A stretch of DNA of 63,981 bases, the filler included, from Reclinomonas americana ATCC 50394 (taxonomy: Eukaryota), in NCBI GenBank assembly GCA_048213135.1. It is 14 parts of 14 records of this genome, joined end to end, with 100 filler letters (N's around TTAATTAATTAA, not from the genome) between each part and the next. Parts side by side here need not be neighbours in the genome. Positions count along the whole stretch, not along the records: positions 26,396 to 34,394 come from AFZH01022551.1; 13 more parts are not named here. One strand, 5' to 3'. The notes below the pieces were generated by a model, which did not search any database, was not told where the DNA came from, and worked only from the letters and a program-made list of their open reading frames with translations. Each line of letters begins with the position of its first letter. Position 1 is the stretch's first letter. Shown piece after piece: positions 4,994-48,492 of the stretch. Both the position numbers and the translations under genes were made by a program.

Positions 4994-5676
4994 GATATGC
5001 CAGTCGTGCGGGTGTGCGATGCGTGGCGGTCAGTCCCGACTGTCGATTTGTGGTCAGTGGTGGAGGTGGTGGCTGTGTGGCGGTGCACTCGCTGGTCGAT
5101 GGCGAGGTGCGGTGGTTTGAGGGGCACACGGACACGGTGCGATCGGTGGCGGTGACTCGCGATGGGCGGTTCGTGGTGAGCGGAGGCAGCGATTGCACGG
5201 TGCGAGTGTGGTCGGTGGCGAGTGGGCGGCTGGAGCGGCTGTTCGCGCGGCACACGGATGGCGTGCGATCGGTGGCGATCTCGGCCGATGGGCATCACGT
5301 GTTGAGTAGCAGTCGGAGCAAGACGACGCGATTGTGGGCGTTGGCGACGGGCGAGGAGGTGGAGTGCTTGGTGGATCGGCAGCAGCCGTGGCCGGTCGCG
5401 TGTACCGCCGATGGACACTTTGTGGTGGTGGGTGCGACCGATGGCGGGTTGCATGTGTGGGCGACGCCGCTTGAGTTGATGCAGCGTGAGGTGGCGGCCG
5501 TGCAGTGTGCGTTGCTCGAGGTGCAGTCGATGCTTGACGACACTGACGATGACAACGTGTGGTGTCTGCCCGAGATTGTGCTGCGGTGCTTCTTGGCGGA
5601 GGATGCACGACTCCGGTACCTGCGCGCCGAAGTCGACCTAGAGATGCAACGCAATGAACCAGTGACTATTCTCTAA
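4994..5676 (+). CDS. WD40-repeat protein with shared C-terminal motif (5' end in gap)
   Basis: GHTDTVRSVAVT...SGGSDCTVRVW-type repeats (about 4), followed by the tail ATPLELMQREV...WCLPEIVLRCFL; stop TAA at 5674-5676. Confidence 0.88.
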
Positions 5677-20826: not shown

Positions 20827-20952
20827 NNNNNNNNNNNNNNNNNNNNNNNNNNNNNNNNNNNNNNNNNNNNTTAATTAATTAANNNNNNNNNNNNNNNNNN
20901 NNNNNNNNNNNNNNNNNNNNNNNNNNGTTCTTCGTCTTCCTACTCGTCTTCT

Positions 20953-22197: not shown

Positions 22198-23426
22198 TTA
22201 ATTGGTCCACTTCAGGGCAAACCACGCAGCGACCGACAGGACAGCCACGCCTGCCGCCGCCGAGTAAAACCTGTGAGGGAAAGAGGAGAGAGAGAGGGTT
22301 ATCATGCAGATTGTCACAAATGCTTGCGCGGAAATGGACGCACCGAAAAGTACGACTGCGTTTCCACAACCGCTGCAAAAAGTTGACCCCGCGCTTCCGC
22401 AGCGCCAACTCGGACCACTCACACAGCACCTCGTTCTGCAACTGCAGGGGAACACCCTCCTGTCGCATGTACAGCAGCGAGTCGTCCAGTGGTGCCAGTG
22501 GTGACCGCTCACTGGCCACCCTCTCGAGCTTCCACAGAGGCCACATGACGCGCAGCGACGCCGCTCGCACCAGCAGCGAATCAAAGTCGGCGTCGGCTGG
22601 GAAGTGCTGCAGGTGATGGTGCAGCTGCACAACAGAGAGAGGAAGCAGAGTGAATGATCCACACTACTCCATCTTTCTTTTCTAAGTGTGCTCACCATGG
22701 CCGCATCGCACTCCACAGCCAACAACTCATCACGCTGCGACAGTACCACCTGATTCCACGACGTCAGTACGGAAGGAGGAGTGAGAAGCATCAAGAGATG
22801 TGTGGTTGGTACGCACCGCCACGGACAAGTAGAGGCAAAAGTCTGGCGGCTGCGAGAGCAGCACGTCGTACACGCGGCACACATCGTCGTAGTCGTCGAC
22901 CACGTGACTGAACCAGGTGAGGATCCAGCTTAATGCAAAGTACGCCTGCCCGCGCACACACACGCACACAAAGGTGAGGATCTTCACCGCCCTCCCCCCT
23001 CCCTCCCTCGCAAAAAATCTGACCTCCAGTCGTGCCTCGTGCAGGTGCTCAAAGAGCTCCTTGTCCAGCGCCTCGATCGCCGGAATCAGCAGACGCAACA
23101 GCGAGATCACCGGCTCAAAGTCCGTGCGCATGCTCTCCCGCACATAGTACTCACACAGACGATCGATGGCGTAGTAGGCCAGCGATTCGCCAAGTGTGAG
23201 GTACAATACCCCACAGAGCTCGTGGAAACCCTGTCGGCGCGGATGCAAGTCAGTCTACTGCGTGTCTGCATGCTCGTTCCAGTCCACCAATCCACACCTG
23301 AAAGTAGTACAGCGACGGCTGTCTCTCCATGGTGCGATGCACCAGGCGGTACAGCACCTTTTGCTCCCGGTCTCGCAACCTGTGTCACAAATCACAAACT
23401 GACACCAGCACGTGCTTGTTTGCTGC
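22198..23426 (-). CDS. TBC1D20: TBC1D20/Gyp8-like Rab GAP with C-terminal TM anchor (5' end in gap)
   Basis: GFHEL after a splice, YFALSWILTWFSHVV, RVYDVLL, LYLSVA, and terminal hydrophobic AAAGVAVLSVAAWF. Confidence 0.75.
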
Positions 23427-23570
23427 NNNNNNNNNNNNNNNNNNNNNNNNNNNNNNNNNNNNNNNNNNNNTTAATTAATTAANNNNNNNNNNNNNNNNNN
23501 NNNNNNNNNNNNNNNNNNNNNNNNNNTTTTCATCTTGTTGTCTGTGTTGTGTTTCTACGAGAGGATAGGC

Positions 23571-24799
23571 ATGCCGCTGCAAAAGGTGTACATGACACAT
23601 GAGGTGTTCCTCACGGGCGTGCTGCACGCGCTGACCACCGAGAAGGAGGAAGTGATGGGATTGTGCCTCGGGTCCATTGATCATGTTGCGCGCGTGCTCT
23701 CTCTCTTCCACACACACACAACGCACGACACACTGTGTAGACAGTCTTGTGTCCACTGCTCTGCGCTGTGTGCGTGCGCTGTTGTCCGAGGAGTCGGGCA
23801 TTTCGCGCACTCACTCACCTTCTCTTCTTCTTCTCCTCACACACACACACACACACACAGGAGACCAGTGTGTGCCGCGTGTGGGGCATCTGCCATCTGG
23901 AGCGCTCCGACCGACGCACCGATCGCGTGGAAGTGAGCCCGGAGCAGCTGTCACTGGCCGCAGTGGAGGCAGAAGTTGCGCGTGAAGATAGAGAGACACT
24001 GTAATCATCACAGTCAAAACTCACTCTTTCCCACGCACACAGCGCGTGACAGCGGCCACTGGGCGTCCCACCTCTGTGGTGGGCTGGTACCACTCGCACC
24101 CGCACATGACATGCCGCCCGTCGCACGTGGATTTGCGGTACCAGGCCGACATGCAAATGCTCGACTCGGGCTTCATTGGCCTCATCTTCTCCGTCTTCAA
24201 TGACGACCAGCACGGCAAGAGCCGCATTCAGGTGCATGCGTGGCAGTCGGTGGAGGATCTGCAGCCGGCGGCGTCGAGTCATCGCGGCGGATCGTCGTCC
24301 ATGGCCGGCATGTATGGCATGGGAATGACGGAGGCGGAGCTGCTGGAGTTTACGGCCATGGAGGCGCAGGCGTCGTCGGATGGGTGGCGTGAGCATGAGG
24401 TGCCGATTGAGTTCTTTGACGACGAGCCCGGCATGTGCGATCTGTACAAGCGTCTCGTCACGCTCATGCGTATCTTTTACACCGAGGAGAAGAAGGTGTA
24501 TCAGACGCAGGTCAATGTGGCGCTGCCGGGCACGCCCGCCACCCCTCCCGTCACCGGACCACAAAAGAGGTACGCTCTCTCTCTCTTCCTCGTTGCGTGT
24601 GTGGATCTCTGATACTCTCTCCACGCGCAGTGCATACACGCGGTTGCATCACGCCGCCGTCTTCCAAAAGTCGGCCTCCAAGCTGCTCGAGTGCCTGTAC
24701 GCGCCACTCAAGCGCGCCCTCACCAACCTGCTGCTGGAGAACCAGAGGAAACTCACTCATCTCGATCAGGCGCTGGCCGCTGCTGCAGATGACAAGTGA
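23571..24799 (+). CDS. BRCC3: BRCC36-like JAMM/MPN+ K63 deubiquitinase
   Basis: HALTTEKEEVMGLCLG, RSDRRTDRVEVSPEQL, GWYHSHPH..RPSHVD, FIGLIFSVF; C-terminal coiled coil. Confidence 0.9.
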
Positions 24800-25966: not shown

Positions 25967-26439
25967 GGTGTAGTTTGTTCTCTCTCACGAGTTGTGCGAA
26001 AAAAGTGTGTGAGTGCATTGTCGATGAAAGTGATAAGGGGTTTCCTCAGGTGCGCCTCTGGTCGACTGAATGTTGGATGCCGCCGAGACCACTCCCTCTT
26101 GGCTCGGAATGTCGGCTGATGTGGCGGAATTCCGAAATGGACGTCTGAAACACCACATTTACGTTTTCCGCGCACACTCGGACCGCAAAGAGAACAATCC
26201 ACCCACACACTCACCCCACTCAAACAGGTGAGTTGCGCGAGCCGCTGCTGCTGCAGCGTGCACAGGCCTCTCTGTATGTGTGCGCAACTCCGATANNNNN
26301 NNNNNNNNNNNNNNNNNNNNNNNNNNNNNNNNNNNNNNNTTAATTAATTAANNNNNNNNNNNNNNNNNNNNNNNNNNNNNNNNNNNNNNNNNNNNAAAGT
26401 CAAAAGACCACACGTATTCTCTTTGCCCCGACGATGTCG

Positions 26440-26770
26440 TATGAACGGGCACCAGGTGGGCACCATCCACCGTTGAAAAACAGCGACTTTGAGACGAATG
26501 CAACTGAGAGGCGATCGATATTGGCCACATTCGACAACGTCGACAGCCAGCCAGGAAGCAACCTTCTTGCTTCTGCGATGATCCCATAAGAACGGCCACC
26601 AGATGGGCATCCTCCATCGTTGAAACAAAGACTTTGAAGAATGCAACGGAGGCGATTGATATTGGTCACATTCAGCGACATCGACAAGCCTGCGATAAGA
26701 ATGGCCACCGGATGGGCATCCTCCAACGTCGAAGACAGCGCGACACAAAGAGGCAATCGATATGAAGCCG
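26440..26770. repeat. Degenerate tandem repeat, about 3 units of roughly 110-145 bp
   Basis: A GGCCACCAGATGGGCATCCTCCA...GAGGCGATCGATAT-like core recurs near 26448, 26594 and 26703. Confidence 0.7.
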
Positions 26771-26823
26771 ACGAGATCGGTGTTTGCTTCAGCGTTTGCG
26801 AATGTTCCGACGAGGAATTTCAC

Positions 26824-28563
26824 TTATTGCTCCTCGTAAACCAGCAGTGCCACACCGACGGGCACGTGGATTACGTGCATGGTGAACACGACGGCGACCT
26901 TGCCGGGTCTGTGGAGAGGAGGGGAGAGACAAGGAAGTAAGCGAAAACGACAGAGAGAAGAGAGATGGTAGGAAAGAGGAGCATGGAGGAGAACGAGGAG
27001 GAGGAGGAGAACGAGGAGGAGGAGGAGAACGAGGAGGAGCATGGACGGGAAAGAGGAGGAGAAGTATGGAGAAAGATGGAGGAGGAGAAGAAGAAGAAAG
27101 AGGAGGGGAATGAGAATGGAGATGGTAGAAGTAAAAGGAGGAAGTACAGGAACAAGAAGAAGGAGAAGACGAAGAAGAAGAACAAGAACAAGAACAACAA
27201 CAAGAAGAAGGAGGAGGAGGCCACAAAAAAAGAAAGGAAGAAGAAGAACAATAACAGCAACAACAACAACAACAAGAAGAAGAAGAAGAAGAAGAAGAAG
27301 AAGAAGAGGAGAAGGAGGAGGAGAATAAGAAAAAGAAGAAGACTGAGTGCAAGTAAACAGAGTCACCGACAATTCAGCTCTCGCTCGTGATACCGATGCG
27401 GTCGCATCACCACTCCTCGTATTCCCACCCTTCTCCTCTCTCGCCCCGCCACTCACCCGACCACCGTGATACCCTCCATCTCGCCGCCGCTCTCCGTGGT
27501 GAACGAATCGAGCACGTTACCCGTCTGCAAGTCCACCACATACACCGGCGCATCGGCAGCGTTGCTCGACAAGTAGATGCGCGATTGCGATGCATCCACC
27601 GCTCCGCCTTGCACCTGCAGACACACAAACGCACGCACACACCAGTGAGCAGCAAAGTCACCTCGTCGGGAGAAGCCGCAGCACCACGCACCGCCTGCAC
27701 CGTCTCCGACAGCTTCAGCTGGCGAATCGGCTGCGTCACCGACGGCGACGCCGAGAACATGTCGCGCAGCGAGTACACCGACAGCGAGTCGACATTGTCG
27801 AACTGCACACAGACGAGCGAGTGAGAGTGAGTGAGGGAGGGAAGGAAAGCGCGAACAGACGCCTTTGCACCTCGCTCGAGTACGCCAGTCCAGCGGTACA
27901 GTCGACGGCAAACCACGGAATGTGTGCCTGCGGGGTGTAGGCGTACTGGCCAGTCCACGTGAGGTTGGCAGCGTGGTACAACGCCACCGATCCGTTGGTG
28001 AACGAGTGAGCCTCGATGGCCGCGTACAGCTGGTCGTCGCAGGAAGAGATGTCGCCTGCAGGGAGAGGGAGGGAGAGACAAGGGAGAGAGAATGCATGAG
28101 AAAGAGATGCAGAGGACGGGGAGAGGGACAGGGGGAGGGGGGAGACAGAGAGGGTGAGTTGCCTGCAGACCTCTTTCTTCCTGATCACTCACTCTCTCTT
28201 TCTCCCTCTCTCTCACTCACCAATGTGCCAGTAACCACGCTCGGCCAGTGGCGGAGGCACAGTGTCCTTGGTCACACTCTGCACAGTGTGAAACTCGGCA
28301 TCGGTCTTGCGCAGCAGACTGCGTCCCGAGAAGAGCCAGTGTCCCTGAGCGTCGTGGTGGCAGAATGACACGCCCTGTGGTGGAGTACACAAATGAGAGA
28401 GAGAGTGTGTGTGTGTGTGTGTGTGTGTTTGCGGACTTGCCTGCGGACTGAGAAGGAACGCGTCTGTCCACTCATGTCGTTGGACTTGCTTCCACTGTGT
28501 GGCAAGTGCACACACTGAGCAGCACACAAGCGTGACTGTGAGAAGAAGGAGTGCTCGCCGCAT
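26824..28563 (-). CDS. Secreted beta-rich (propeller-like) hypothetical protein
   Basis: Signal MRRALLLLTVTLVCCSVCALA; in-phase exons ...WHIG|DISS...IPWFAVD...VQGG...EMEGITVV|PGKVAVVF...EEQ*. Confidence 0.7.
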
Positions 28564-28670
28564 GGACTCAGAAAAACTTTATTGGGACAGCAGCATGGTC
28601 GTGGAATTCTACAACGTCGCGTAGACAGCGAGGAAGGATGACCATCTTGTGCCTCACTTTGCAGCGGTGG

Positions 28671-30290
28671 TCACGAGAGAAACACAAACCTGCCAACTGC
28701 CACAGCCGAAAGGTCAACGTGTTTTCGCACGACGCATGCACGGATTCGACTGCTGCTGCGCCTCGGTGCGCGTACTGAGACCTTGCGCGTTGTACATGCT
28801 GCCGGCGCGCTGCGAGACAAGTGGAATAATACCACCTCTGCCTCGCATACGATGAAGCACCGCAGCACGACATCGACGAGGCACCAGTCCGAGTCGTCGA
28901 GTGTCCGCACGGCGGCGGAAGCTTGCCGAGCGGCGGTGACCTCGGTCTGTGCCATCTGCAGTGGTGACACCAGTTCTCGTCGCAGTTCCATGAGGTGGTC
29001 CAGGTCGGCAATCGTGTCGCCTTCGTCGTTTTCGATCTGTCAGATGTGAACGCGTGAGGGGATGCAAAAGGAGGAATGCACAAGCACTCACTGGTAATTT
29101 CCTCAGTCGCTGATGTGCATTACCCCCTGGGCACAGTACGCAGTTGTCACGCAGGGCTATCAGGTTTGCGTCGCACCGCGGATCACTTACAGCGGTGACG
29201 AGCTGGCGGCAATCGACATCGCCACACAAATATCTGCGCTTCCACCACCACCTCGTCGTCGACAAGACTATCCGTCGTGTCATCAACAGCACTGTAAGCA
29301 GCGAGATAACGCGACGTGCGTCGACTTCACGCGACGCAACAATCCAGCATTCTCACGTTGCAGCTCCTCGTGCGAAATCAACTGTCGCAGTCCCCAGTCT
29401 GGCTCCCCGCGAGTGAATACCATCCTCATTTCTGGGTGGTTCGAATTCTCAAGCTCGTGAGAAAGCACGAGCACCACAACAAGCTGATCACCGACACAAC
29501 TTGTAAACGTTGACTGGTGCCCCAGTCCAGGCAGCTGACTGACGACACCGAAGGCAAACTCGGCCGCAGGAAGGATGGGGCAGTCTTCGTCGCGATCGCT
29601 GCTCACAGTTTGAGCGCAACAACCATCAACAAAGAAAGCAAGACCAAGGATGACTAACGCTTCAGCGCCGGCATCAACGGCAGTAGAATCAACGTCCCTC
29701 ATCGCCACGGACTCGAGGTACGCTGACAGGTGCAGGTAGAGTTCCCGTGTGGAAACGCGATGAGGCGCCTGTGCTCACGGAAGAGGAATGAGGGCCAGCA
29801 CATCTCATACTCGTCGACGGGTCGGTAGGCACCAGCGATAGCCCTTGCACTCGAATATGGACGAGACGAGTCGTGCCCTCGCTGCCATGTGTTGCGCAAA
29901 GTCATCAATCTTCCACCTGACGACACATGCATTCGCTGCGCATTCGGCCACTCAATCAATCAAGATGATGTGACACGCCACGCAGCACATGCTACACGCA
30001 CAAGCAGTGTACACCACGCGTAGACCAGGAGGTTGGTGAGAGTCTTCCTCCGAGAACAGCAGTGTCTCTGTCCCGATCGGCGGTCAGCAACATGTGCACA
30101 GACAGGAACGAAGATGTGGGACGGACCAACGCTCTTCTCCGGATCACTGTACGAGTGAAGGGAATGAGTCGGTGCAGGAGGAGGTTGAGGCGAGTCAGAG
30201 GAGCACGGAACCCGATCGCGAACATCGTGATTGGCTGACAATAATGAACCGAACACGACGGACACGAGAGTCCAGAACTCTCGAGCTCAT
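28671..30290 (-). pseudogene. MATH/TRAF-domain gene copy A, frameshifted near 29740
   Basis: Spliced RWKIDDF...SSIFECKGYRW|RLIAFPHGN; only 8 nt lie between Asn and HLSAYLES, against 12 nt in copy B. Then AAEF, FTRGEPDWG, AGF|LVDDEVVVEAQI. Could be a sequencing error; start inferred. Confidence 0.65.
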
Positions 30291-30368
30291 CGACTGCTAC
30301 GTCGCGAATGTACCAGCGCACACTGAGAATTGAAGATCAACAACGACGTCGAGATGTACGCTTACATT

Positions 30369-31802
30369 TCAGGACAAGTGGAACAAGACCACCTCTGCCT
30401 CACAAACCATGCAGCAACGCATCACCACATCCACGAGGCACCAGTCCGAGTCGTCGAGTGCCACAACGGCCTCCGATGCACGTCGGGCGGCCATGAGCTC
30501 CATTCGTGCCGCATGCTGCGGTGTCGCCAACGCCCGCCGCACTTGCATGAGGTGGTCCAGATCGGCAAGCATGTCGCCAGCTTCATTCTCCGTCTGTAAT
30601 GACAAGCACGATGTGTAAGTAGCCGCACGTGCACGTGCACGTTCGTGAGAGTGGAGATCAGCCCACCGATGCTGGCTTCAGTTGGAACACACTGCCACCT
30701 GGCGGAGTACAACACCGTCAACACGAGGAGCGATAAACATGTTTGCAGCACAGTGTGGAACCACATACCACGGCCATAAGTGGCAAAAGCTGTCTTTGAT
30801 CGCCAGGCAAAGATCTGCGCTTCCACCACCACCGCGTCGTCGACAAGGCTGCCCGTCACCAGCACCATCATCAGCAATGAAATGACGCGAGGTGCTTCGA
30901 CTCCATGCGACGCAACAAGCCAGCATTTTCGCGTTGCAAGTCCGCGTGTGAGATCACCTGTCGCACCCCCCAGTCTTGCTCCAAGGCATTGAATACCTTC
31001 CTCATCACTGCGCGATACTCTGGTGAGAACCACACTGGCACAGAAGCAAGCAAGCAGAGAGTCAACGCAACACGTGAAAGTTGACGGATGCCCGAGTCCA
31101 GGAAGCTGACTGACAGTGGCCACTGCAAACTCGGCCGCGGGAACTTCGGGAAGACGGGTGTCTTGGCTGCAGTCAACAGTTTTAGCACGTCGGACGCTTT
31201 GGCGGAGAAACGCAGCGTGAGGTTGCCATGACGAACACTCTAATGCCCGCGTCAATGGCAGCAACCTGAATATCCAAAATGTCCATTGACTCGAGATAGA
31301 GAGACAAGTAGCCACCGATTTGGTTGCCGTGGGGGAACGCGAGAAGGCGCCTGCACCGATCGCGAGGGAGGACAGAGGAGTGAGGAGACGCAGTATCTCT
31401 TGGGTGTGACAACGGTTCCTAGGCACCAGCAAAAGCCACAGCACTCAAATGTGGGCGACATGAGTCGTGTCTTCGGAGTCATCATGTGTTGCGCAAAGCC
31501 ATCAATCCTCCACCTGACAACACATGCATTCGCTGCGCATGCAGCATCAGTCAATCAAGCAGGGTGATGCACAAGACGAGGAACACGCACCAGCAGTGTA
31601 CACCATGCGCAGACCGGGAGCCTGACGAGAGTCTTCCTCTGAGAACAGCAGAGTCTCCGTCACTGCGCAAGGCATGTGCAGTCAGCAACACGTACGAGTG
31701 TGCAACAGGAACAGAGGCATGAGTGGACAGGCCTTCGCGCTTTACAGGTCTGTGAAGGGAATGAGTCAGCACATTAGGATGTTGAAGCGACACAGAGGCC
31801 AC
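30369..31802 (-). CDS. MATH/TRAF-domain protein copy B with shared C-terminal motif
   Basis: RWRIDGF...SPTFECCGFCW|RLLAFPHGNQIGGYLSLYL, AAEFAVATVSQ, FNALEQDWG, AGF|LVDDAVVVEAQI; start uncertain. Confidence 0.8.
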
Positions 31803-32034
31803 GCAACTCGTACGTATACTCCGTCATTGCATGTGTGTGCGGCAGGTGGACAAGATTTGCCGGAAATGACTCGGAAGTTGGCACACGTTCACGCCACGCT
31901 TTCACTCATATCGCTTTGAGAGGCTCGATGTGCTTATATGTCGCGTGTGCAAGAGAGAGAGAGAGCACAGCGACGACGCTGATTTCGTGAACGTCGATGT
32001 CCTCCTCTCTCTTCATCTGTCGGTCGAGCGTGGC

Positions 32035-33713
32035 ATGGGAGACGCGTTCCGCCGCTTCCTGCAAGAGCTTGGCCACTCCACTCCACTACCTGCATCACCC
32101 ACCACTCCTGCAATCGCCCCCCATAACAACAACAACCACACAGCATGTGCACTGCAAGCAGAGCGACTCCGCAATCAGCTGCGCGTTCTGCAAGAGGCTC
32201 TCGCGCGTCTCCCCCCACCGACCACCGTCACTGTGCCTCCCACTGACACAGCACTGGCCACGGCGCTCATCACGGCACACGTGCTGCGAGTGGCTCTGCA
32301 GCGGACTGTGAGGTATGTGTCATTCACGCTCGTGAACAGACTCTGTCGCTCACGCGTGCACGCAGCGACGTGGAACGCGAGCTGCGACAAGTGGAACAAG
32401 TGGATCGGTGGTGGCAATCGCGCTGGATGCTGCGTCTAGGCAGCGCGATCCCTCCGCTGTCAGTTGTCTCGACTGCGCCTCAGTCGAGTGACGACCACGA
32501 TGAAGTGCGCGGTTTGATGCAGCGGGCGGTGCTGGTCGCTCGACGACTATTGCAAGCCGGTGCGCTGGACAAGCCTTCAGCGCGTCAGTGCTTTGTGCAG
32601 GTGCATCGACTGTTGTGGCGATTGCACGAGCGATCGTTGGAGGTGAGCTGTGAGGTCGCCTTCTCTCCCCACAAGCACGCACACACACGTGGGTGCAGGG
32701 CACGAGGGAGTGGGAGTCTGTGCTGCTGGAGACTGCTATGCTGTGTCGACTGCGACGTATGCAGACGACTGCATGTCACCGGTGGGTGGTGCAGGTGGAG
32801 GGGCTCATGGAGCACGCGCTGCGCAAGCTGCGACGGCCAGGCGACGTGTATTGCAAGTGGTGCGTGTGGACGAGGCGCAAAGAAAAACAATGGTGTGCTG
32901 ATTGTGGAGGCGCAGGAAGCACGACTGTTGGAGGCCGGCGTTGGAGGCCAGTGCGGCGCGACTGGTGGAGCAGTCTGTGTGGCCGCTGCTGGAAGACAGG
33001 TGTGCTCTTGTTGCTCCCTTCAAGACCGAAGATGACGCCCACATTATGTTGCTCCCTGTCGCAGCCTGGCGACACTGTGCGATGGTCGCGCGAGCGCTCC
33101 TGTGCAAGGTGCAGTCCGATTGTGTTTGCGCAGTCGTTGTGTGCACTGACAGTCCTCCAGAGGCCGCCCTGGCCGCCGAGTTCGCGGCTCTGCCCAGTCC
33201 ACCCACGGCTCGGATGAGTGCATTCCTCGCACGCATGGCCAGCGTGCACGCGAGTGCGGCGAGCATGGTTGGCCAGCTGAGTGTCGGTGCCGAGCAACTG
33301 GTGGGTACGCTATACCACGGCTCCGTGCCATCCGCACAGTTTGTTCGCATCCTGCTGCATGGCTGTGCGCAGGGGGTGCAAGTGGCACGGGCGGCGGTAC
33401 GACAGTGGTTGGTTCGCGCCTACATCTCCAAGAGGTGAGCCGCGTTGTGTTGTTTTTGTGCGCTGACCAAAATACTCGCTCATCTCCCGCCCACCCGCCT
33501 GCCCGCAGCCTGAATTGTGTGCCTCGTCGTCGTCGTGAAGCTCTATTGCGCTTTGTTCGTGACACAGATCAGCGACTCACTGCGCCTGCGTTGCGCATGG
33601 TGAGCGAGAACAGAATTTGTGTGCATTCGTGGACCACATGCGTGTTGTTTGTGACTCGTGTGCGCTTGCAGACGATGCGTGTGCTACGGCGACTGGACGA
33701 GAGCATGAGGTGA
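32035..33713 (+). CDS. Hypothetical protein
   Basis: Exon-like GC3-rich blocks (MGDAFRRFLQELG; LEASAARLVEQSVWP...QWLVRAYISKR) with GT-AG boundaries; no recognised domain. Confidence 0.5.
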
Positions 33714-33779
33714 TTGTAAATGCGTTTCACTGCCACGACAACGGTGTTCAGTACGACAGTGCAGGAATAGACAGACCCT

Positions 33780-36575
33780 GACAAGCATACGTGCACGTGA
33801 GTGGTACAAAACGGTAGGGGAAAGAAAGAGTCAATCAGCCAACTGCTGTCATCTACTCGCAGACAGAGCCGTCAGCCGAAGGCGCAGTTCCGTTGTCACT
33901 GCACGGCAGCGTGTCAGACACGGTGTGGCGGTCGCGAGTTGAGAGCAGTTTTTTTGCAAATCCACTCACCACACTGTGCAGCTGGTCGAACCCGCCGGGG
34001 CCGCCGACCCAGCAGCGCATGGGTCACATGAGTTTCCGTTCTGGAACGTACCAGCCGTGCTGGTGAGGGACCGCTCCGCCAGTTAGCAACCAGCATTGAG
34101 GGACTCAACAAGAAAACTCAAGCATGCACACAAACCATTGCACGCAAGTGGTGCCGTCAGCGCTGGACACAAACCCAGCATCGCAGGCAGTGCAGCTGGT
34201 GGCGCCAGCAGCCGAGATCGAGCCCGCGGCACACAATTCACATGTATTGGTAGCGGCGCTCTGAGCTGTGCCAGCAACACTGCGGACGCAGGGTTTCAGG
34301 ATGAGTTGTTGCCAGACGGAAAGGATACTATGCACGCACTCACCATTGGTCACACGCGGTGCCATCAGCACTGGAAACAAAGCCAGCACCACAANNNNNN
34401 NNNNNNNNNNNNNNNNNNNNNNNNNNNNNNNNNNNNNNTTAATTAATTAANNNNNNNNNNNNNNNNNNNNNNNNNNNNNNNNNNNNNNNNNNNNGCCGGC
34501 AGCGCTGCGTGCAACAATCGGTGAGCATTCACCGCAGCACTCGCGTTCTCACACCCACACCACCAACCATTGGTTGCACGCGGTGCCGTCAGCACTGGAC
34601 ACAAAGCCAGCACCGCAGGCAGTGCATGTGGCGTCACCGGCAGCCGAGATTGATCCAGCGGCGCTGTTTGAAGACACACCGCATAAGCGCCCCTCATTCT
34701 CCAGTTCTTGCGCAACAACGCGCTGCTTACCATGCGGTGCAAGCGGAGGTCAGGTCGCCAGACGTTCCAGCGGGGCTGTAATACGCAAAGGCACACTTAA
34801 GCACCATGCGTTTGTGTCTCGTGCGATCGGACAAGCGCCTGCTTACCAGACACACGCATCACCAGCGGCGCTCAGCACCCGCGGCGCAGCACTGCGAGAA
34901 TCATGAGTTGGTATATGTTGCATGCCAGGGCCGTTCACAAACACATGCAGATGCGTACCAGCCGCACGAGTTGGTGGCCGGATCAAACACCAAGTTAGAA
35001 GGGCTGCAGAAAAACGGGACAGTTATGAGCACACACTCTCGTTCTCCACAACTGCGTCCAAAGATTCCTCACCAGACACATCCGTCACGAGCGGCGGTCG
35101 GCGAACTGCCAGCCGGGCTGCCAAATCAAAGTGACGTGAGTTTTTTGAACACACTTACATGACAAATGGCCAGCTTCGCCGACTCACCAAGCAATGCAAC
35201 GCTTGCCGTCGTGGTCATCATCGCCATCGTCGTCGTCGTCGTCATCATTGTCATCGTGATCGTCATCGTCGAGGTCACGAGGATGCTGATGATGTCCAGC
35301 GGGCTTGGAAGCAAGCCATTTGCCGGCCGGGCTGCAGAGATGCGAGTGAGACAACAGCCACAAGGGTGCAAAGCAGACAAAGTAATCACCAGACTTCGCA
35401 CGACCACGTGCTGGCGTCGAAAAACTTGTCGCGCAAGCTGACCGCCAATGGTGTGAGAAACACACACGCGTATCATCAAATTGTGAGTACAGCGGAGCGT
35501 ACCAGTGGCACACGTTGTCGTCCGACACGGCCACATCAGGGCACGGGCGACACGCAGCAGCTCCGGCTGCGCTCACCGAGTTGCGCGGGCTGCACGACAA
35601 AGGTCATATGCACGGAATCGCGATGAAGCTGCACATTGACAGCAAATGCGTACCAGCGCTTGCAGCCGGTGGCGCCGTCGGTATCGGAAAATGTGCCGGG
35701 CGGGCTGCGTACAAATGAATGCGCAGCGTGAGTCACATGCCTGTCACCCGCAAATGATTCACGTGCTTACCAATCGGTGCAGGCGGTGTTGGGGCGAGAC
35801 GAGAATTGACCAGCGTCGCTGTGCAGCACAGAGAGAGTGGTGAGGAAACGAAGTGAGCTCTGTGAAGCGCATGGCTCGAGAGCCAGGTAGTCCCACCAAA
35901 TGTTGCAGCTCGAGACATCGCCGCCGTAGCCGGGAGGGCTGCACATCATTTGTCAGTGCCCAATGCGAGATTTGAGAAAATGCGAGCAGCACATGGACCG
36001 CACCAATCACACTTGACGGCGTCGGCGTTGAAGACGAGCGGCGATCCACTGTGACAGAAAGGTGAGCCGAGTCGACAACGCAAGGGCGGACGGCATGAAC
36101 TTACCAAACACATGAATTGTGAGCGGCGTTGGCAGCCGAGTTGGTCGGGCTGATGTGGCGAATGTGAGCACGGAGAAAGGCAATGACAGAAGCAAGTTCT
36201 GGCGCACCATGCGTCACAGTTGAAGCTGCCAGCCGAGCTGGAAGAGAACGAGAGACAACGGTGTCGTCAGCGTCAGGGAGAGGAGAGTGTCAACGAAGAA
36301 GCCGGCGGCACACGTACCCCACACATGAGCGATTGGTAGTGCGAGTAAATGTGTTGCCAGTGCTGCGGTTGGCACACTATGAGGTCACCAACATGCCCCA
36401 CTGTCGTCAGACAACGACCACCAATCACGAACCATGCCATGCAGGTGCCGGCGGCCAGACGACACTGGCCACTGGCGCAACGGCTGCCACCACCGGCAGC
36501 GACAACGTGCAGGAGCAAGGAAGTGGCCACCACCACGAGCAGCAGGGAAATCGGTGAGGAAAGTTGACGGCGCAT
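33780..36575 (-). CDS. Cys-rich surface/secreted protein with ephrin-receptor-like (GCC2/GCC3-type) repeats; spans the 34395 gap
   Basis: Signal MRRQLSSPISLLLVVVA; repeated exons of the type CAAGSISAAGATSCTACDAGFVSSADGTTCVQ on both sides of the gap; poly-Asp tract. 3' end approximate. Confidence 0.7.
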
Positions 36576-37855
36576 AATTTTTCTGCTCACGCAGGAAGCA
36601 ATCGAGTTAGTTCTCAGACAAACAGGAAGGCGGTGCGTGTTCCCGAAATGCGAGCCCCAGAGACACGCGGAAGAGCAAAAGAGATAGACAAGGGAGACGA
36701 GTGCAGACGCACAATGTGTGCATCAGAGAGGAAGCAGATGCGCACATGGCACCCAAGGCACCCCGCAGCTTCGTCAATGCATTGGTCACGGAAATGTGTG
36801 CCAAATAGGGCGCACACGGTGCGAGAAAAATAGACTGTTCTCTGACAGTGCGTCTGTCGACGTGCTATGTGGTGGGAGTGTGAGTGGGAAAGAGAGACAG
36901 AGAGAGCCTGTGAAAGCGAAGGGGGAAAGTGTGGGGGGCAAGATATCAGACATATCGGAAAAGAGAGACTCGTGAGACGCAGAAAACGCACAGAGACACA
37001 GCAGAAGGGAGGGACGGAGGGAGGGAAGGAAGGAGGGAGAGAGAGACGTCACAATGTGTGACTGAGTGGGGGTGTGGTCTCCGCTCACCAGTCTTCGAGA
37101 AAAGAAAAATAAGACACGACAGATGCTCAAATCTGCAATATGCAGAGTCGGTTGCACGGAGAGAGGCGCCCCGTGGGGGCATCTCGGCACCCGACACTGC
37201 ATATGCGTTCGATGTGATTCACTCGCCTCTCTCGCACACACACACACACACACACGCACACGTGCTCTCTCACTGTCACCGTGCACCCAGTTGTGTGCGT
37301 GTACACCAATGCAACAGAAAAACGCGGAAAAACAAGTATCTTCGTTCCCGCAAACACAACATACAGGCCGCATACGGTACCCGAAGGCGGCGGCTCACCT
37401 CCAGAAAAATGCGGTTGCCCCCGGCCGGTCGGTGCCGTACGCGTCAGCAATGACGCATGCACAACAGATGAGTCAACGAACGGCGCACTGTGGCGCTGTG
37501 GCTCCCTCAACGACACTGACAGTGCAAGCTGCAGGTGCCGGTGCACGGCGGCCAGTCGATCCATGGTCCACTCTTCGGTTGGCAAAGTCGAATCGCCAAC
37601 GAAGCTGCAAGCGATCGTCGAGTGAGCACGAAGGCAGCTGCGAGGGAACGATCGACCATGCGATGATAGTTGCATCGCTCATCGATCCACTCAACGGAAA
37701 GGAGCTGCCTGCTGCTGCTGCCCGCCCAGTGAGAGACATGCAGCACCAGCAGCTCGCAACAATGCATCAGTTTTCTTCTTTACCAGCCCTCTATCTCTCT
37801 CACACGCGCTCACACGAGCGCGCTCACATGCAGGCTACTTATACGCGCTCTCTGA

Positions 37856-38350
37856 TTACTCTGGGCACTCCTGCACACAACGCCTCTTGATCTGCAAACG
37901 ACGACACGTGGTGGTGAGTCACACACTCACATGAATGCAAGTCAGTCACAACATTCACACACACCTCCTCAAAGTCGACCTTGTCCTTGGATAATCGCTG
38001 CACGCACTCCATGCGACACGCGCGCACCTTGTTCGCCTTCTCCTCAGTTTGCGCTGCACCCAGAAGCACAGAAGAGTGAGCACAATCACACACACGCACA
38101 CACACACACACACACCAGTGGCATAGTTACGCGGATCAGCGCCTGCAGCGAGGAGAGAGAGTCAGCAAGGAGAGAGAGTCAGCACTCGCGTCTCTCTCTC
38201 TCTCTCTCTCTCTCAGTCACCTGTCGGTCCTCGATACTTTGCCTCAGAGGCCAGACGCGCGTCCATAGGCGATGGGAGAAGGAGCCAGTAGAAGGCCAAG
38301 GCTGCGGCCACGACGGCAATGATTAGCACTGTGGAGTTGTTGCGTGCCAT
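37856..38350 (-). CDS. 93-aa signal/TM micro-protein with CX3C-X17-CX3C
   Basis: Exons 38221-38350, 38116-38142, 37965-38053 and 37856-37891; all GT-AG and in phase from ATG to TAA. Confidence 0.8.
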
Positions 38351-39060
38351 CGGAGATAACGAGATAGAAGAGTGACTTCACAGGACGAACTCGAATGCAG
38401 ATGTCAGTCTGTGCGTGCAGCCATCCTCTCCGCTGTATGCACGAAGACTTCCCCATTGTGCTGCACGCTGTCATTGCTGGTCATGCAGTCGACTTCTAAG
38501 CTGCAATTGTTCTCGATCCCAGCTAGCGCCGTCTGCCACTGTTTTGCTCCATAACCTGTCGTCAGCACCTGAGACATTTCCTTGCACCGTTAGCTATCCT
38601 CTCACGGTACTTGGTGAGCCCTTGGTCGCGATCGCTGCGCTGCATTCGAATTCAACGAGCGCCCTCGATTGCAGCTGATCATGAACCATGTCTGCGACAG
38701 ACACTCCCTTGCACTATTTGCTATCTTGCCGCAGCGCACCAAGTGACCCCTTAATGGCGATCGCTGTACGTTGTTGTGAACCAGAGCGTTTGCTCCGCCA
38801 TCTTCGCTGTCTGTCGGTGATCGTAAAATCATCTTCCCTGTTACCTTTCACCTTTTTGCTGTTCCACCAAGTCACGCGAACCCTTGGCGATCGCAGCAGT
38901 CGATTGCAAGCTCCTTCCTTCGATCGCTGCTGTTAACCCGTGTTCGCAGTCTACGCAAGCGGTCTTCTCCGTCGCCTGTACCTTCGTTTTCGATCGCTGT
39001 GTTTCCCACGGCCAGGTCCCTGATATGAGTAAGAACAACCCTTCATGAGCCTCCCCTCTT

Positions 39061-42000
39061 TCACAACCGGCTGATCCACAAGCGCATTGCATCCATGGCC
39101 GCCACGGCTTGTGGGCAATGTGTACGCACAAACTCCTCGTCTGTGGCCACCGACCGCGCAGCGTCGCCCTGCGGACAAGCGGGATTGTGAGCGTCGTCGC
39201 CATCGGAACGACGATACGACAACGAACCAAAGCGTACGAGGCCTTCAACGCCGCGGCGCCGTCAAAGTTCACGAATGCCAGTCGTGCAGTCAGTTCGTGC
39301 GGATGCCGCTCGAACGCCGAGCCTGCATGCATACTGCGAGTGAGACAGCGCAAAACGCTGCCCTAACTTCCTCCCCGCACGCACCAGGCAGCAGCGCCAC
39401 ACCCGACTCGGCCAGCAGGCGATCGCATAGCTCAGCCGAGGTGGTGATTCCACGTCGCGACAGCTGTTCGCGGAACGGCTCAAAGTCGGGGAACAAATAG
39501 AACGCACCCTGTGATGCCACCAACATAGAATGAGCCACGTCAAAGTGTTTCTCAGCTTCCACCGTCGTCACTCACCGCAGCCGGCACGCAAGGCACGCCG
39601 GCCACCTCGAGTGCCTGATGGCAGTGGCGAGCAATGGCACGGAGAATGTGGTTCTGGTGGAGGATGCAGCGCTGAATGCTGACGGGGAGAGCGAGAGGTG
39701 AGGAATAGGGAGAGACTCATCAAGGGGAGAGATGCTGCGCCACTCAACGATTTCTCGCTCACGTCGTAGGCCTTGATGGCGGCGTACTGCACTGGCGAGG
39801 CAACTGTTCGATGACGGTCAGTGCGATGCACCCTTCGGCCATTCAACTGACGCCACTCACCACAGCTGAATATCTGCGAGGCCACGGCGGATGCGGCCAC
39901 AACCAGCGACGACAGAGAGGACGGGTATGCCGCAAATCCTGTTAATCGAAGACTCGCGTGAGGGAGGAGACACACACACGCAGACAACTCGCCACTCCAC
40001 ACTCACCCAGGCGCCATCCACCTGCTCCCGCCCACCTGACACAATGCCAACAAGTCAGCGAAGAATGAGTTGAAACGCCAGAGTTGATACACATGCGAGC
40101 GCAACTTGGAGAGGCCAGAGAACAGAACAGTGCCCTCTGGGTAGCTGGCAGCCATCGACGCCGGCGTCCCCTCGAATGTGGCACTGGCGTAGATCTCGTC
40201 GCTATGGGGCACGGGTGGTCAGACTCAATCAAACAAAGGGGGGAAGATGGAAAGGGATGCGCTAAGCTGCGAGAAAGCAGTGCGATGCGCAACAGCGGTC
40301 TTGAAAACAGAAACACGCACCAAGTCTCTTCCACTAAACCCCTATCTCCTTGTTGTTGCTGTTGCTGTTCTTCTTCTTCTTCAATCTCGCGTTACACTTC
40401 CTCCGCCACCTGGTGTTCTTTTCGGCATTCTCCTTGCTCATTTTCTTCTCTCTCCCCCTCCATTTCATCTCTTCCTCTCCCAATGTCTCCCATCTTCCAC
40501 CAATGTCTCCTATTCCTCCTCCTTTGTCCTCGCCTCCTCCACGTTCCCCGTCCCTCACACACCCTTCTCCTTCTCGTTCTCCTTATTCTTCTTTTCCCCC
40601 TATCTTCCGTCCTTTTCTCTCTTACTTCTTCTTCTCCTTCGCATTCTTCTTCTCCTCCTCCTCCTCCTACTTCTCAGTCTCCCTTCCTCCCCTTCTCTCT
40701 GCCACTCTCTACCCCTCCCATGCTCCCTTCCTCCCTCCTTCCCCTCCCTCCATCTTCTTCTCCTCCTCCTCCTCTTCCATTCTCCCTTCCTCCCTCTCCC
40801 CCTCCTCTTCTTCCCTCCCTCCTCCCATTCTCCTTCCCCTTCCCCATTCCCGTCCCTCCTTGTTCTTCCTTCCTTCCTCCTCCTTCCCTCCCTCTCTCCC
40901 TCCCTTCCCCTTCCTCTCCTTTCCCTCCCCCCTCCCTCTCCCTCTCCCTCCTTGTGGCCTCACCTAAACACCAGCGCATTGTGCCGGCGCAACACCGACG
41001 CCAGCGCATCATACTCGGCCTTGGTGTACGCCTGCCCCGTGGGATTGCCCGGCGAGTTGAGAATGACGGCACAGTGACGGCGACGCCGCGGCACGAGGAG
41101 GGCGGCATCCAGAGCGGCCGGTGTCACTTTCCTGCATATTGCCTCCTTTTGTGAGTTTGTTGTGCGGGCGGCAGACGAGAAGAAAGAAAACGGACGACAA
41201 ACCAGCTGGTGTCGGCCGTGGTGTGCAACAGGTGCACGTGGCATCCGCTCATGTTGGCCTGCGCGCAAGTGAGCTGTATATCGATGGCAAACCCCCAAGG
41301 CACCCACGCACGCAACATGCGGTCGATACGACACCCACGTCGGCGTGGGAATGATCACGTCTGCGAGTGGTCGCCGGTCAGCGACAACCGCAACAACGAG
41401 CTCACTGCAGCGCGCGCACGGCTCACCTCCATCAAAGCACAATTGCGTAATGTACAGGAGGCCCTTTGATCCGGGGCCCACAATCACGTTCTCGGGTCGC
41501 AGGTGCACGCCCGGGAACTGATCGCCGAGCCACGAGACAATCGCATTGCGCAGTGCCGGGAGACCTGTGCAGGGCCCGACGAATGAGCAAGACAATAGAG
41601 AGATACACATACCAAGCTCAGGCACCTTTGACCTGCAAGTACGCATTCTCATGCGCGTGCTTCTGCAGCTCGTCGTGCACCACCGACGGAACCTGTCACA
41701 CACCAAAAAAAAATGTCGGGGAAATCCGGCAGCACACGTGTGTGTGGGGGTGGGGTGGGGACGCAACAGGAAAGGGGCTCTCGCCAAAGCCCATGGCAAA
41801 CACCGGCTGCCCTCGCGCTCGCATCTCTGCCAGCCTGCATTCCACAATGATGAGTGTGACGATGACAAGACAATGACTGAGGAGGAGGAGGAGACGACCT
41901 TGTGCTCATGGCCATTGTGGGTGACGAGTCGAGTGCGGCCATCTGTGTGCCACAGCATTGGTTGGTCAGAGTCAGCTGAAGTGAGAGTGGAGGGAGAGAG

Positions 42001-42179
42001 CAGACCTCCGGTTTCACGAGATTCTCAAACACAGCCTTTGGTGACACGCTGCGAGTGTGAACGCAGTGCGATGATGATGCCGAGGATGTGATCGTGCGTT
42101 GGAGGAGGAGAGGAGGCGGGAGAGGGGGCGACTGGCCAGCTCCTGTCGATCGCAGGAGGCAACGAGCGCGCGCAAACAT
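39061..42179 (-). CDS. PLP-dependent class I/II aminotransferase (aspartate aminotransferase-like), possible mitochondrial presequence
   Basis: GLPALRNAI, VGPGSK, PTPTWVSY, LNSPGNPTG, SDEIY, SGLSK|WAGAGGWRLG, GAFYLFP; Arg-rich N-terminus MFARARCLLRS. Confidence 0.9.
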
Positions 42180-42275
42180 AATTGCAGCGTGTTCGGAAAT
42201 CACTAGGACAGGGACGGAGGTGAAAGAAGAAGGGGGCGATGGTTTCACTGCGAGAGGCTCGTTCTGCGTGGTGGT

Positions 42276-43303
42276 CTACACGGGCGGCGCCGTTGTTCCG
42301 TAGTTCGTGTACGCGCCGGCACCGTTGTGAGCGGCATACTGCGCACCATACGGCGGCACTGGCGCGGCGTTGGCGTAGGCAGGCGCCGGTGCGTCGATGG
42401 TCTTGAGCGGCGGCCCGAGCTTGCGGTACGCGATCCACAGAGCAACGTAGCCGACCAGCAGCGGAATCCACATCACCCACACGGCTGCAGGTCGATTCCA
42501 ATGTTAGAGAAGAACGCATGTCTGCCAAGCACAGCAAACGCAACGCCAGCGAGGAGAGCAGAAGCCGTCGGCGCCAATAAAGGCAAACACAGTAACTATA
42601 GCGGTTCCAACGAGACCGCTCAGGAGACCTGCGTTTTTATGTGAGCGTGAACGCACAAGAAAAACGAGGAAGACTTCTCTTAATACCTCACCAACGGTGA
42701 ACACAAAAGCGTTGAGGCCGCGACCGCGCTCGCGAGTGTAGCGCACGTTGACAACAATGTGGATCACGTGCAGCAGCATGCACGAGCCGCAGATGATCAA
42801 CAAGGCCATGACGAAGGCGCCCACGGGATCGGAGGTGCCCGGGAACATGCCGGCGTAGAGGCCAAGAATGTCTCGGAACTCGCTAGGCGCCTCCGAGAAC
42901 GACCAGCAGGAGCACTCGGTCTCCAAACAGCCGCACACCTCGCTGTTCTTCACCAGCAGACCTGCAAGCGACAAGAGAGTGAGAAGACAACAGATGGCGG
43001 ACGAAACTACGCTGCTGCAAACAAAGAACACCCCCTACGATACCCTCTCTTACAACAACACTCTCTGGACTAACCAAAGCCAAGGGAGGCTCCAAGGTCA
43101 AACACCCGGACATGCGCCACGGACCAAATGTTGCCGCCGCCGGCGATCGCAATGATGGCCACGGCGATGCCGAGGCTCAGCAGGGTGAGCACAATGGTCC
43201 ACCGACCACGCGACGACTGCAGAGCCGCGCCGCACGAGACGGTGTCGCCGGCGCTGGCGAGCAACTGGCGCTGATCAGACTGCACGGAGGGCTGGGTATT
43301 CAT
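42276..43303 (-). CDS. About 4-TM membrane protein (claudin-like topology) with Pro/Tyr-rich tail
   Basis: Hydrophobic segments IVLTLLSLGIAVAIIAI, FVMALLIICG, LLSGLVGTAIVTVFAFI, WIPLLVGYVALWI; tail contains PPY. Confidence 0.6.
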
Positions 43304-43726: not shown

Positions 43727-45074
43727 TCACTCGGCGACATCAGTCGGGTCGCCCGCGGTCACCCATCGCCACCATTGCACTCGTGCATCTTCCTCGAGGA
43801 AGCAGCGCAGCACCATCAGCGGCAACGGTTCGCGTCCCACGCCGCCCTCATCGTCGCGGTCGCCGTCACTGTCGTCTACCAACTCGAGTAAATGATCAAA
43901 CGCTGATCGCACCAGGAGAACCTCGCCGGCCGCCCACTGCGGTGCATTCCACCGCCCTGCAGCCACCGACACAACACACTCTCACGAGATGAACACACTG
44001 CTGTGAGCTGTGTAACGCCACAACTCACCGGCCGGCCAGATACGAATGGTGCCGTCGCCCGAGCTGCTCGCCACACGTCCGTCGCACAAGAAATGCACCG
44101 ACGACGCACTCTGCTGATGACCGTAAAACACGGCCGCCGTGCGACCCGACAACACGCTGATTACCTCCACAGTGCAACCTGCGCGCACAAGACAACACTC
44201 GTCAGCCGCGGACACACCCTCCCCCTTCTCCTGCCGCTCACCAACCATACGACGCGACCACCACATACAATCCGTCGGCGGAAAAGTTGACAGACGACGA
44301 CAACACCGCGCGTCTCCGCAGCTCCCGCCTCTCGCCCGTGCCCACCTCCAGCAGGCGCAGACTGCCCTTGCCGTTGACCATGGCCAGCGTGCGACCGTCG
44401 GGCGACAGCGCCAGCCGCAACACCATCACCGACTCGACTCCATCATGATCTTCCACCGTGCGAACACACTCGCCCGTGGCCAGTCGCCACCACCGCAGCG
44501 TGTTGTCAAACGCACTGCCGACGACGCACTCTCCACACGACGACAGCACCAACGACGACACCAACGGCGACGTGGTGAACACCGACATGCTCAATCCCGT
44601 GGTCAGTCGCCACACTCGCGCCGATCCATCCAGCGCCGCGCTCACCACATGCCGATCATCGCGCGTCACTGCCACCGCATACACACCCTCACGATGTCCG
44701 CGCCCAGTCCACACGTGCTCCACTGTGGCGCGTTCCTTGTCGACCTCCCACAGCACGACATCGCACTCGGCATTGTGGCTGACCCCAGTGCCGCCGGCCA
44801 ACCAGCGTGCAGTGGTGGGCGAGAATGACACTACCCACATGGGACGATGGTAGTGCTGCTGCACGGCAGAGGAGGCGAGGAGGCGTCCGTCGGAGCTGTG
44901 GAACACGTGGACGAGGGCGTCGTCACACGCAGCGGCGATGAGTTGGGTGGAGGAGGCGGGTGGTGGTTGGAGAGGGGGTGAGAGGGCGATTTGGCTGATG
45001 CTGCCTCCGCATGTGAGGAGGAGGTGGTGGCTTGGTGGTGGTGGTGGTGGTGGTGGTGGTGGTGGCGAGCTCAT
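43727..45074 (-). CDS. WD40-repeat protein with shared C-terminal motif
   Basis: GHREGVYAVAV...SAALDGSARVW, SAFDNTLRWW, GHQQ...SSSGDGTIRIW; last exon ...PLPLMVLRCFLEEDARV. Confidence 0.85.
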
Positions 45075-45419
45075 TGGAAGACAAGTGGCGTGTTCGTCCC
45101 GTGCGAGCTATGCATGCACTTTGTCGCGAGGAGAACATGTACTAGTTGTTAGAGAGAAACAGTCTGTTGTGGCCCCAGCTTGTCGCTGCAAGCTCGAGGA
45201 GCGAAACACGGCCGTCGACGTTGCAGATCGCTGACAGCGAATTCGAAGGTTGATTGGTGCAGTGTCTTTGACGTCGACTCGCTCTTTCCGCTGTGCGTGC
45301 AGCTATCGATTATTCCTGCTCACTGCACCGCTGAAGAATGTTCCGGGCCTTGCAGCGACGCACAGAAGTCGACGTCACTGATTTCGCGCGCTTTTTGTTC
45401 CAACACTTGCGGAGAGCAA

Positions 45420-48492
<3,073 letters not shown>

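Follow-up and report, generated by a model that had tools for sequence, protein, structure and literature searches.

A portable C-terminal box shared by WD40 and probable MATH proteins of Reclinomonas americana

Why do proteins with different N-terminal target-binding domains end in the same short tail? The question is raised by a 63,981-nucleotide stretch of draft genome sequence from Reclinomonas americana ATCC 50394 (assembly GCA_048213135.1; hereafter, the window), in which two genes with a MATH-like domain (MATH-A and MATH-B) and two with WD40 repeats (WD40-1 and WD40-2) carry an alignable segment, here called the box, at or near their C-terminus. F-box, SOCS box and BTB are short portable boxes that mark out entire families of substrate receptors of ubiquitin ligases; such boxes are difficult to spot in protists, where the diversification of F-box proteins has hampered their discovery (PMC9485057). 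A first-pass annotation of the window had taken the segment for an unrecognised, shuffled adaptor box of cullin-RING ligases. The analysis reported here asks whether the four segments are one module, what they look like, where else they occur and what they might bind.

Results

Four homologous copies of one C-terminal module

A regular-expression and six-frame scan recovered the four segments where the first-pass annotation had placed them, and the peptides that it quoted are the translations of that DNA. Their locations are as follows.

5464..5673 (+): WD40-1 box (TPLELMQ...VLRCFLAEDARLRYL...PVTIL), in one open reading frame (ORF) with the propeller; TAA at 5674-5676
28818..28967 (-): MATH-A box (SPLQMAQ...VVLFHL), with helix 1, DDSD loop and helix 2
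30372..30524 (-): MATH-B box (TPQHAAR...VVLFHLS); TGA directly after it at 30369-30371
43730..43956 (-): WD40-2 last exon, which is the box with a long acidic loop (APQWAAG...DDSDGDRDDEGGVGREPLPLMVLRCFLEEDARV...); TGA at 43727-43729

The segments can be aligned across ~55-60 residues. In BLASTP comparisons the MATH-A tail matches that of WD40-1 with an E-value of 5e-10 (20/44 residues identical) and the WD40-1 tail matches that of WD40-2 with E=1e-7, while the direct comparison of MATH-A with WD40-2 is weak (E=0.023). Profile-to-profile comparison of the WD40 and MATH tails, on which the idea of a common box had been staked beforehand, gave an hhalign probability of 97.6% (E=2.6e-12 over 49 columns) between an alignment of five WD40 tails (A7) and one of two MATH tails (A8). 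When the 1451 six-frame ORFs of the window were searched with a hidden Markov model (HMM) built from WD40 tails only, MATH-A (7e-13) and MATH-B (2e-7) were retrieved and the next ORF scored 0.8; in the reverse search of the window ORFs, an HMM of the MATH tails only found WD40-1 at 3e-6 and missed WD40-2 (E=2). No fifth copy was detected in the window with an HMM of all four tails. These alignments identify the four segments as homologous copies of one module.

The resemblance among boxes does not follow the domains to which they are attached. Box identity reaches 52% between MATH-A and P0004, a WD40 protein from outside the window described below, and 46% between MATH-A and a second such relative, P0001; it is 38% between WD40-1 and WD40-2. 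By this measure box similarity cuts across the type of N-terminal domain. In three of the four window genes (MATH-A, MATH-B and WD40-2) the box is encoded by the last exon, shortly 3' of an intron. Module exchange between gene families is supported because box identities ignore the N-terminal domain and because of this last-exon location, a pattern that speaks against both convergence and prolonged co-descent with a single domain.

The WD40 genes

The structures of the two WD40 genes are listed here; splice sites and 3' ends of all four box genes were read from the sequence.

4996..5463 (+): WD40-1, four WD40 blades (Pfam WD40, 2.9e-24), with the 5' end cut by the contig start (linker 4894-4993)
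43957..44028 (-): WD40-2, 72-nt phase-1 intron (GTGAGT...TGCAG), 5 residues before the box
43985..45107 (-): WD40-2, WD40 propeller exons (Pfam WD40 and beta-propeller families); the span includes the 72-nt intron, and the exon ends at 44029

The WD40 assignment of both genes is secure as judged by family profiles, with matches to PF00400 (2.9e-24 and 5.4e-13) above its cut-off. Propeller and box share one ORF in WD40-1. In WD40-2, removal of the intron clears an in-frame stop and joins the two parts as ...IRIWPA-G-RWNAPQW....

The MATH-like genes

MATH-A and MATH-B are tandem paralogues ~1.57-1.60 kb apart. When their DNA is aligned, exons are ~75-80% identical and putative introns ~45-55%.

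28674..29036 (-): MATH-A last exon, comprising the acceptor cag|ATCGAAAAC, a 24-residue linker (IENDEGDTIADLDHLMELRRELV), the box and an unconserved 48-codon run-on; stop at 28671-28673
29186..30201 (-): MATH-A upstream exons, coding for a MATH-like domain that short introns interrupt; approximate limits from paralogue homology (repeat families D4-D10)
30372..30593 (-): MATH-B last exon, comprising the acceptor cag|ACGGAGAAT, a 24-residue linker and the box
30720..31798 (-): MATH-B upstream exons, a MATH-like domain; limits approximate
43957-44028, 29040-29110 and 30594-30680 (-): short GT...AG introns, ~70 nt or less, of WD40-2, MATH-A and MATH-B

Introns this short cause ORF lists made with translation table 11 to fragment the genes across frames. 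The first-pass annotation had called both N-terminal domains MATH, and the label stands as a probable one. Each paralogue gives two partial matches to PF22486 (MATH_2), at 21.0 bits (E=4.3e-4, profile positions 3-35) and 16.3 bits (E=0.012, positions 80-126) for MATH-A and at 16.9 bits (E=0.0079) and 14.1 bits (E=0.056) for MATH-B. The matches are collinear in both proteins, but every one of them lies below the 32-bit cut-off of the family, the queries being single exons and not the spliced protein. Single exons used as queries retrieved no MATH chain from PDB sequences.

The paralogues also indicate how the tail is read. Over the last 35 nt, which encode V-C-E-A-E-V-V-L-F-H-L, all four differences (4/4) are synonymous and at third positions, and over the whole last exon the synonymous (dS) and non-synonymous (dN) divergences are 0.70 and 0.19 (dN/dS=0.28). 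This synonymous bias and ratio imply that both MATH copies translate the tail in the stated frame and that purifying selection acts on it in each. Homology between the paralogues (repeat family D3) stops at 28816 in MATH-A, the point corresponding to the MATH-B stop after ...FHLS. The MATH-A ORF reads 48 unconserved codons past the position of the MATH-B stop (28674-28817, -), an extension that reflects either a recently lost stop codon or a 3' splice that escaped recognition. At 26900-27350, upstream of the MATH pair, lies a long purine-rich low-complexity tract of GAG/GAA/AAC trinucleotide type (repeat families D1 and D2).

Anatomy and predicted fold of the box

Aligned with one another, the four segments are a single mobile C-terminal module of ~55-60 residues, built from two conserved stretches on either side of an acidic loop. 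Helix 1 is amphipathic and begins at an invariant proline, with the pattern [ST]-P-L-x-x-A-R-x-E-L-x-x-A-R-x-A-x-x-A-V. The loop varies in length from 4 to ~20 residues. The first turns of helix 2 are almost invariant, reading L-[PV]-x-φ-V-L-R-C-F-φ-x-E-[DE]-A-x-V, and the protein ends 22-37 residues past the invariant leucine of this helix (36 in WD40-1, 32 in WD40-2 and 24 in P0004). C-terminal placement was borne out accordingly for MATH-B, WD40-1, WD40-2 and P0004, which stop shortly after the box, and MATH-A runs on for its 48 codons. A reading of the acidic loop as an EF-hand was ruled out by its 4 to ~20 residue length and by the lack of the position-12 glutamate in most members.

The tail is predicted to fold as a helix, an acidic loop and a second helix. 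In the AlphaFold2 model from the alignment of seven tails (the four window copies and three relatives), helices at residues 6-29 and 39-66 are joined by the acidic loop, with a mean predicted local distance difference test score (pLDDT) of 78 and a predicted template modelling score (pTM) of 0.43. The full-length model of P0004 (pTM 0.77) places helices at 332-358 and 366-393 (pLDDT ~80-87) after a complete 7-bladed propeller, residues 1-330 of which match 7-bladed WD40 structures with Z ~35. The alignments behind these models hold only 7-8 sequences.

Conservation is distributed differently over the two helices. Helix 1 is conserved on one face, at P6, E13, A20 and an Ala/Val/Leu stripe spaced at 3-4 residues. 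In helix 2, residues 42-48 (φ-V-L-R-C-F-φ) form seven consecutive conserved columns that cover all faces and are followed by E-[DE]-A-x-V, a distribution more in keeping with a segment that a partner grips than with a plain coiled coil.

Relatives outside the window

A profile of the four tails, searched against 1.84 billion representative proteins, returned seven sequences at E<=0.001, three of which are genuine members: P0001 (116 aa), P0004 (394 aa, complete) and P0006 (147 aa). Each consists of WD40 repeats, a blade end of the form '...VWSTP' and then the same tail at the C-terminus. P0001 is labelled as an ORF derived from an expressed sequence tag (EST), meaning that transcription of a family member does occur somewhere. 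In full length, all three relatives matched only WD40-type Pfam families at E<=1 among the matches listed, which were the best 25 of 33 for P0004 and the best 25 of 27 for P0001.

The other four sequences were rejected. P0002, P0003 and P0005 have HEAT/ARM-like repeats and match 7-8 times each through the short acidic-loop-like stretch 'VVKLLEDSD..VR.AAI.CL', and P0007 is a repeat- and retroelement-like protein. The HEAT/ARM motif is a low-complexity trap for later HMMs of the box.

Further searches added no members. Word-index search with the WD40-1 tail among proteins of near length gave no match; with profile A4, such searches returned only P0004 and P0006 among longer proteins and only P0001 at near lengths. 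A first scan of the JGI metagenomes (alignment A5) yielded 84 pattern-matching stretches, none of them confirmed. A second scan, with the degenerate DNA pattern for VLRCF..E[DE]A, yielded at least 117 stretches; among the matches listed none was confirmed, and all scored <=18.7 bits against the A4 HMM, which is no more than the search pattern itself yields. These stretches include antisense frames and an ORF that is NAD-kinase-like by eye. Two metagenome ORFs, L040 82-1194 (-) and L065 22-1710 (+), were set aside as NAD-kinase-like by eye; their 'VVLRCFVAEDARAD' agrees by chance with the helix 2 core, within an unrelated protein. One 15-residue match in viral contigs (L001) lies on the opposite strand of a 341-aa ORF and was rejected as chance. 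No member was found in prokaryote genome contigs, and the ESM Atlas gave no usable lead.

In full-text literature searches, which left subscription journals and supplementary files outside their scope, the strings VLRCF, VVLRCF and VLRCFL occurred only in unrelated work, and articles on C-terminal F-box, PRANC, WD40, MATH and protist topics held no description of such a box. Judged by public data, the box family is rare and confined to a poorly sampled eukaryotic lineage.

Layout of the window and other genes

The window consists of 14 contigs joined end to end by 13 linkers, each of the form N44-TTAATTAATTAA-N44, with stops in six frames.

Linkers: 4894-4993, 6750-6849, 9162-9261, 16894-16993, 20827-20926, 23427-23526, 26296-26395, 34395-34494, 46184-46283, 47317-47416, 48493-48592, 60128-60227 and 62725-62824

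As the window is a set of joined draft contigs, neighbourhood across linkers, and with it the apparent proximity of the box loci, is uninformative. The box had been described as present at three loci in 64 kb; its genes do occupy three separate places (contigs 4994-6749, 26396-34394 and 34495-46183), but these are three of 14 linker-joined contigs and not one locus. That many more copies may exist genome-wide, as the first-pass annotation supposed, is at most hinted at by this presence of a member on three of 14 contigs. Several contigs end in (CT)n or (CA)n microsatellites. With a GC content of ~52-60% and genes interrupted by short GT...AG introns, the window has eukaryote-typical content, including the following genes identified with Pfam.

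1246-4665 (-): Ski2/MTR4-like helicase
5800-6720 (-): protein kinase
10520-11743 (-): C3HC4 RING finger
22733-23254 (-): TBC RabGAP
23992-24796 (+): BRCC36-type JAMM deubiquitinase
40963-42024 (-): class I/II aminotransferase
60717-61471 (+): RNI-type leucine-rich repeat (LRR) protein
63238-63825 (-): second kinase

A fragment of a WD40 propeller (PF25174, E=4.2e-8) lies on another contig at 21405-21842 (+), where no copy of the box is detectable.

Discussion

A candidate docking box for target-binding domains

Alignments, exon positions and substitution patterns describe the box as a conserved, selected and portable module that follows two kinds of target-binding domain at the C-terminus. The tail probably serves to dock these domains onto a shared partner. 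As a docking box it would link swappable recognition domains, be it a WD40 propeller with seven blades or a MATH-like domain, to a partner that they have in common, and the class considered likeliest is that of cullin-RING ubiquitin ligase adaptors. In that case helix 2 might be engaged in the manner of a truncated, PRANC-like C-terminal F-box or of a SOCS box, and the proteins would be substrate receptors. This ligase-adaptor reading is favoured because cullin ligases recruit substrates through WD40 and MATH domains and because short boxes at the C-terminus (PRANC, SOCS box, BC box) are the known means of connecting such domains to ligases (PMC3185573, PMC6232478, PMC4812663). Argued from domain architecture, it is the single likeliest mechanism, and we propose it tentatively.

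The two parts of the original proposal fare differently. A shuffled box is upheld by the hhalign result and by the incongruence between box and N-terminal domain, which point to one portable module on two kinds of protein. 'Unrecognised' is also apt, as none of the seven tails (0/7) matches any Pfam family at E<=10, the HMMER filters discarding most matches above ~0.1, and there is no sequence match in the PDB. The cullin-RING part does not share this support, and several results weigh against it. The Pfam search covered F-box (PF00646/PF12937), F-box-like, PRANC and SOCS_box, and profiles of four and of seven tails retrieved no F-box or SOCS chain from 177,635 distinct PDB sequences, a collection in which such chains are numerous. 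Neither the BC-box consensus [TSP]-L-x3-[CSA]-x3-φ nor the LPΦP motif of the Cul5 box, which is required for Cul5 binding (PMC4812663), occurs in any tail (0/7 each). The minimal F-box pattern φ-P-x2-φ-x3-φ falls on the invariant core in four of the seven (WD40-1, WD40-2, P0001 and P0006), against a background of 0.09 per 70-residue tail (motif patterns as printed in PMC6232478); its proline is replaced by valine in the other three (MATH-A, MATH-B and P0004), and the four matching tails are homologous to one another and do not count as independent matches. The 22-37 residues past the invariant leucine compare with 43 positions in the Pfam F-box model, and in the AlphaFold models, from their few sequences, these residues form one long helix, where an F-box has three short ones. 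When the tail model was used in fold searches, generic helical hairpins came up throughout: Foldseek against the PDB gave a best E of 3.7, VIA-align over 48,161 chains a best Z of 6.4, within its stated noise for helical models, and the BFVD search a best E of 1.3. F-box and SOCS chains were unlisted in the fold searches, although by the tools' own account such absence says little. On sequence evidence, the box is not demonstrably a member of the F-box, PRANC or SOCS-box family. In its boldest form the docking proposal would make the tail an undescribed ligase-docking class, of an evolutionary origin independent of F-box, SOCS box, BTB and H-box, exon-shuffled onto WD40 and MATH receptors in a thinly sampled protist lineage and joined to a cullin-RING or other E3 scaffold through the L-[PV]-x-φ-V-L-R-C-F helix; we regard this version as unlikely.

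Self-association would account for the tail in another way. The two helices would form an antiparallel coiled-coil hairpin that pairs into a four-helix bundle or higher oligomer, making the recognition domains multivalent, much as TRAF-type MATH and coronin-type WD40 proteins become multivalent through coiled coils. Two long helices are indeed predicted in both the tail and the P0004 models, helix 1 bears a single Ala/Val/Leu-rich stripe with a spacing of 3-4 residues, and VIA-align lists the dimerising hairpins of PRC1 (N-terminal, Z=5.4), SYCE3 (Z=5.4) and APS (phenylalanine zipper, Z=5.3), all in the noise range. Set against this, the invariant R45, C46, E50/D51 and A52 of helix 2, with its seven conserved columns, exceed what a coiled-coil core needs, the loop between the helices ranges from 4 to ~20 residues and the structural matches do not rise above background. 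Complex prediction for a tail homodimer, run without an alignment and on an uncertain fold, scored 0.01 against a mark of 0.32, a result that speaks neither for nor against pairing. Self-association is a possible explanation, if a somewhat improbable one.

The evidence for a portable, partner-gripped module applies equally to docking on a lineage-specific partner outside the ubiquitin system, for instance a scaffold, a signalling hub or an anchor in the cytoskeleton or membrane, to which the domains would be brought as to a place and not to an E3. Neither sequence nor fold connects the box to a known ligase box, and the family is very rare, with three relatives in 1.84 billion representatives. 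Nothing, however, points to any particular alternative, and the role for which WD40 and MATH together are best known is that of substrate receptors of ligases (PMC3185573). We consider a non-ligase partner conceivable, with some doubt.

A narrower form of the ligase-adaptor reading holds that the tail is a true but very divergent truncated F-box, a Skp1-binding member of the F-box/PRANC superfamily. The F-box is a ~50-residue, three-helix fold, although a two-helix version, and in CP77 as few as 13 residues, is reported to suffice for Skp1 binding (PMC3185573). Too few residues follow the invariant leucine of the box for anything but a truncated, PRANC-like F-box to fit, and the short, C-terminal tail does resemble PRANC, whose truncated F-box is reported sufficient for Skp1 (PMC3185573). 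The F-box pattern at the invariant core of four tails also speaks for this form. The absence of Pfam matches in all seven tails, the valine in place of proline in three and a conserved helix 1 without counterpart in the F-box definition speak against it, as does, for the little it says, the absence of F-box chains from the fold searches; altogether this form appears quite improbable.

Lastly, a chance match, non-coding DNA or an artefact of assembly, which might be entertained on the ground that the window is made of joined draft contigs and the four genes are known from sequence alone, is effectively refuted by E-values from 5e-10 to 2.6e-12, synonymous-biased substitutions and independent relatives in other datasets, one of them an EST-derived ORF.

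What the box adds

The box, common to two classic receptor domains and matched by nothing in Pfam, now has a working profile of seven members. Its novelty is that of a new box family within a known kind of architecture. Should ligase docking be true, a hidden receptor family would be revealed, possibly with a new adaptor interface; should the tail serve oligomerisation or targeting instead, the gain would be the smaller one of a new lineage-restricted domain family. Either way, its sharing between MATH and WD40 proteins offers a clean case of module exchange between gene families.

Comparison with known systems

Coiled coils adjoin MATH or WD40 domains and drive oligomerisation in TRAF proteins, in plant MATH-coiled-coil proteins and at the C-terminus of coronin. 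These elements are single long coiled coils that are not known to carry the conserved L-P-x-φ-V-L-R-C-F core of the box.

Among ligase-associated elements, the DCAF H-box is a short helical motif with a conserved leucine and arginine beside a WD40 propeller, which resembles the box by eye; it anchors WD40 receptors to DDB1, at its BPC, and is portable to unrelated viral proteins (PMC3928422). It differs in lying N-terminal to the propeller (PMC3928422), whereas the helices of the box are C-terminal, and has no published profile. The SOCS box of WSB1 follows WD40 repeats as a C-terminal helical box of ~40-60 residues, with a first helix that begins [ST]-P-L and a later helix that contains L-P (PMC4812663), features that recur in the box described here; the latter departs from SOCS boxes (PF07525) in its lack of BC box, LPΦP and HMM match (0/7 for each). 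In ANK/BC proteins (ectromelia 010) and VHL-type Cul2 adaptors, a short C-terminal tail that can be transplanted to a repeat domain gives ligase association (PMC6232478), which is how the box is proposed to behave, but their BC-box consensus is absent from all seven box tails.

Cellular F-boxes are placed N-terminal to WD40 repeats (PMC3185573). PRANC (PF09372), of poxviral and Nasonia proteins, differs from the box in its partners, which are ankyrin repeats in place of WD40 and MATH-like domains. From PRANC and F-box alike, the box is further set apart by the lack of any HMM match (0/7), by the change of proline to valine in three of seven tails and by an added conserved upstream helix and acidic loop. 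Common to PRANC and the box, on the other hand, are a short helical element at the extreme C-terminus, a position after a repeat-type target-binding domain, an L-P-x-x-φ-x-x-x-φ core, seen in four of the seven tails, and a length too small for a full three-helix F-box, as in the truncated PRANC (PMC3185573).

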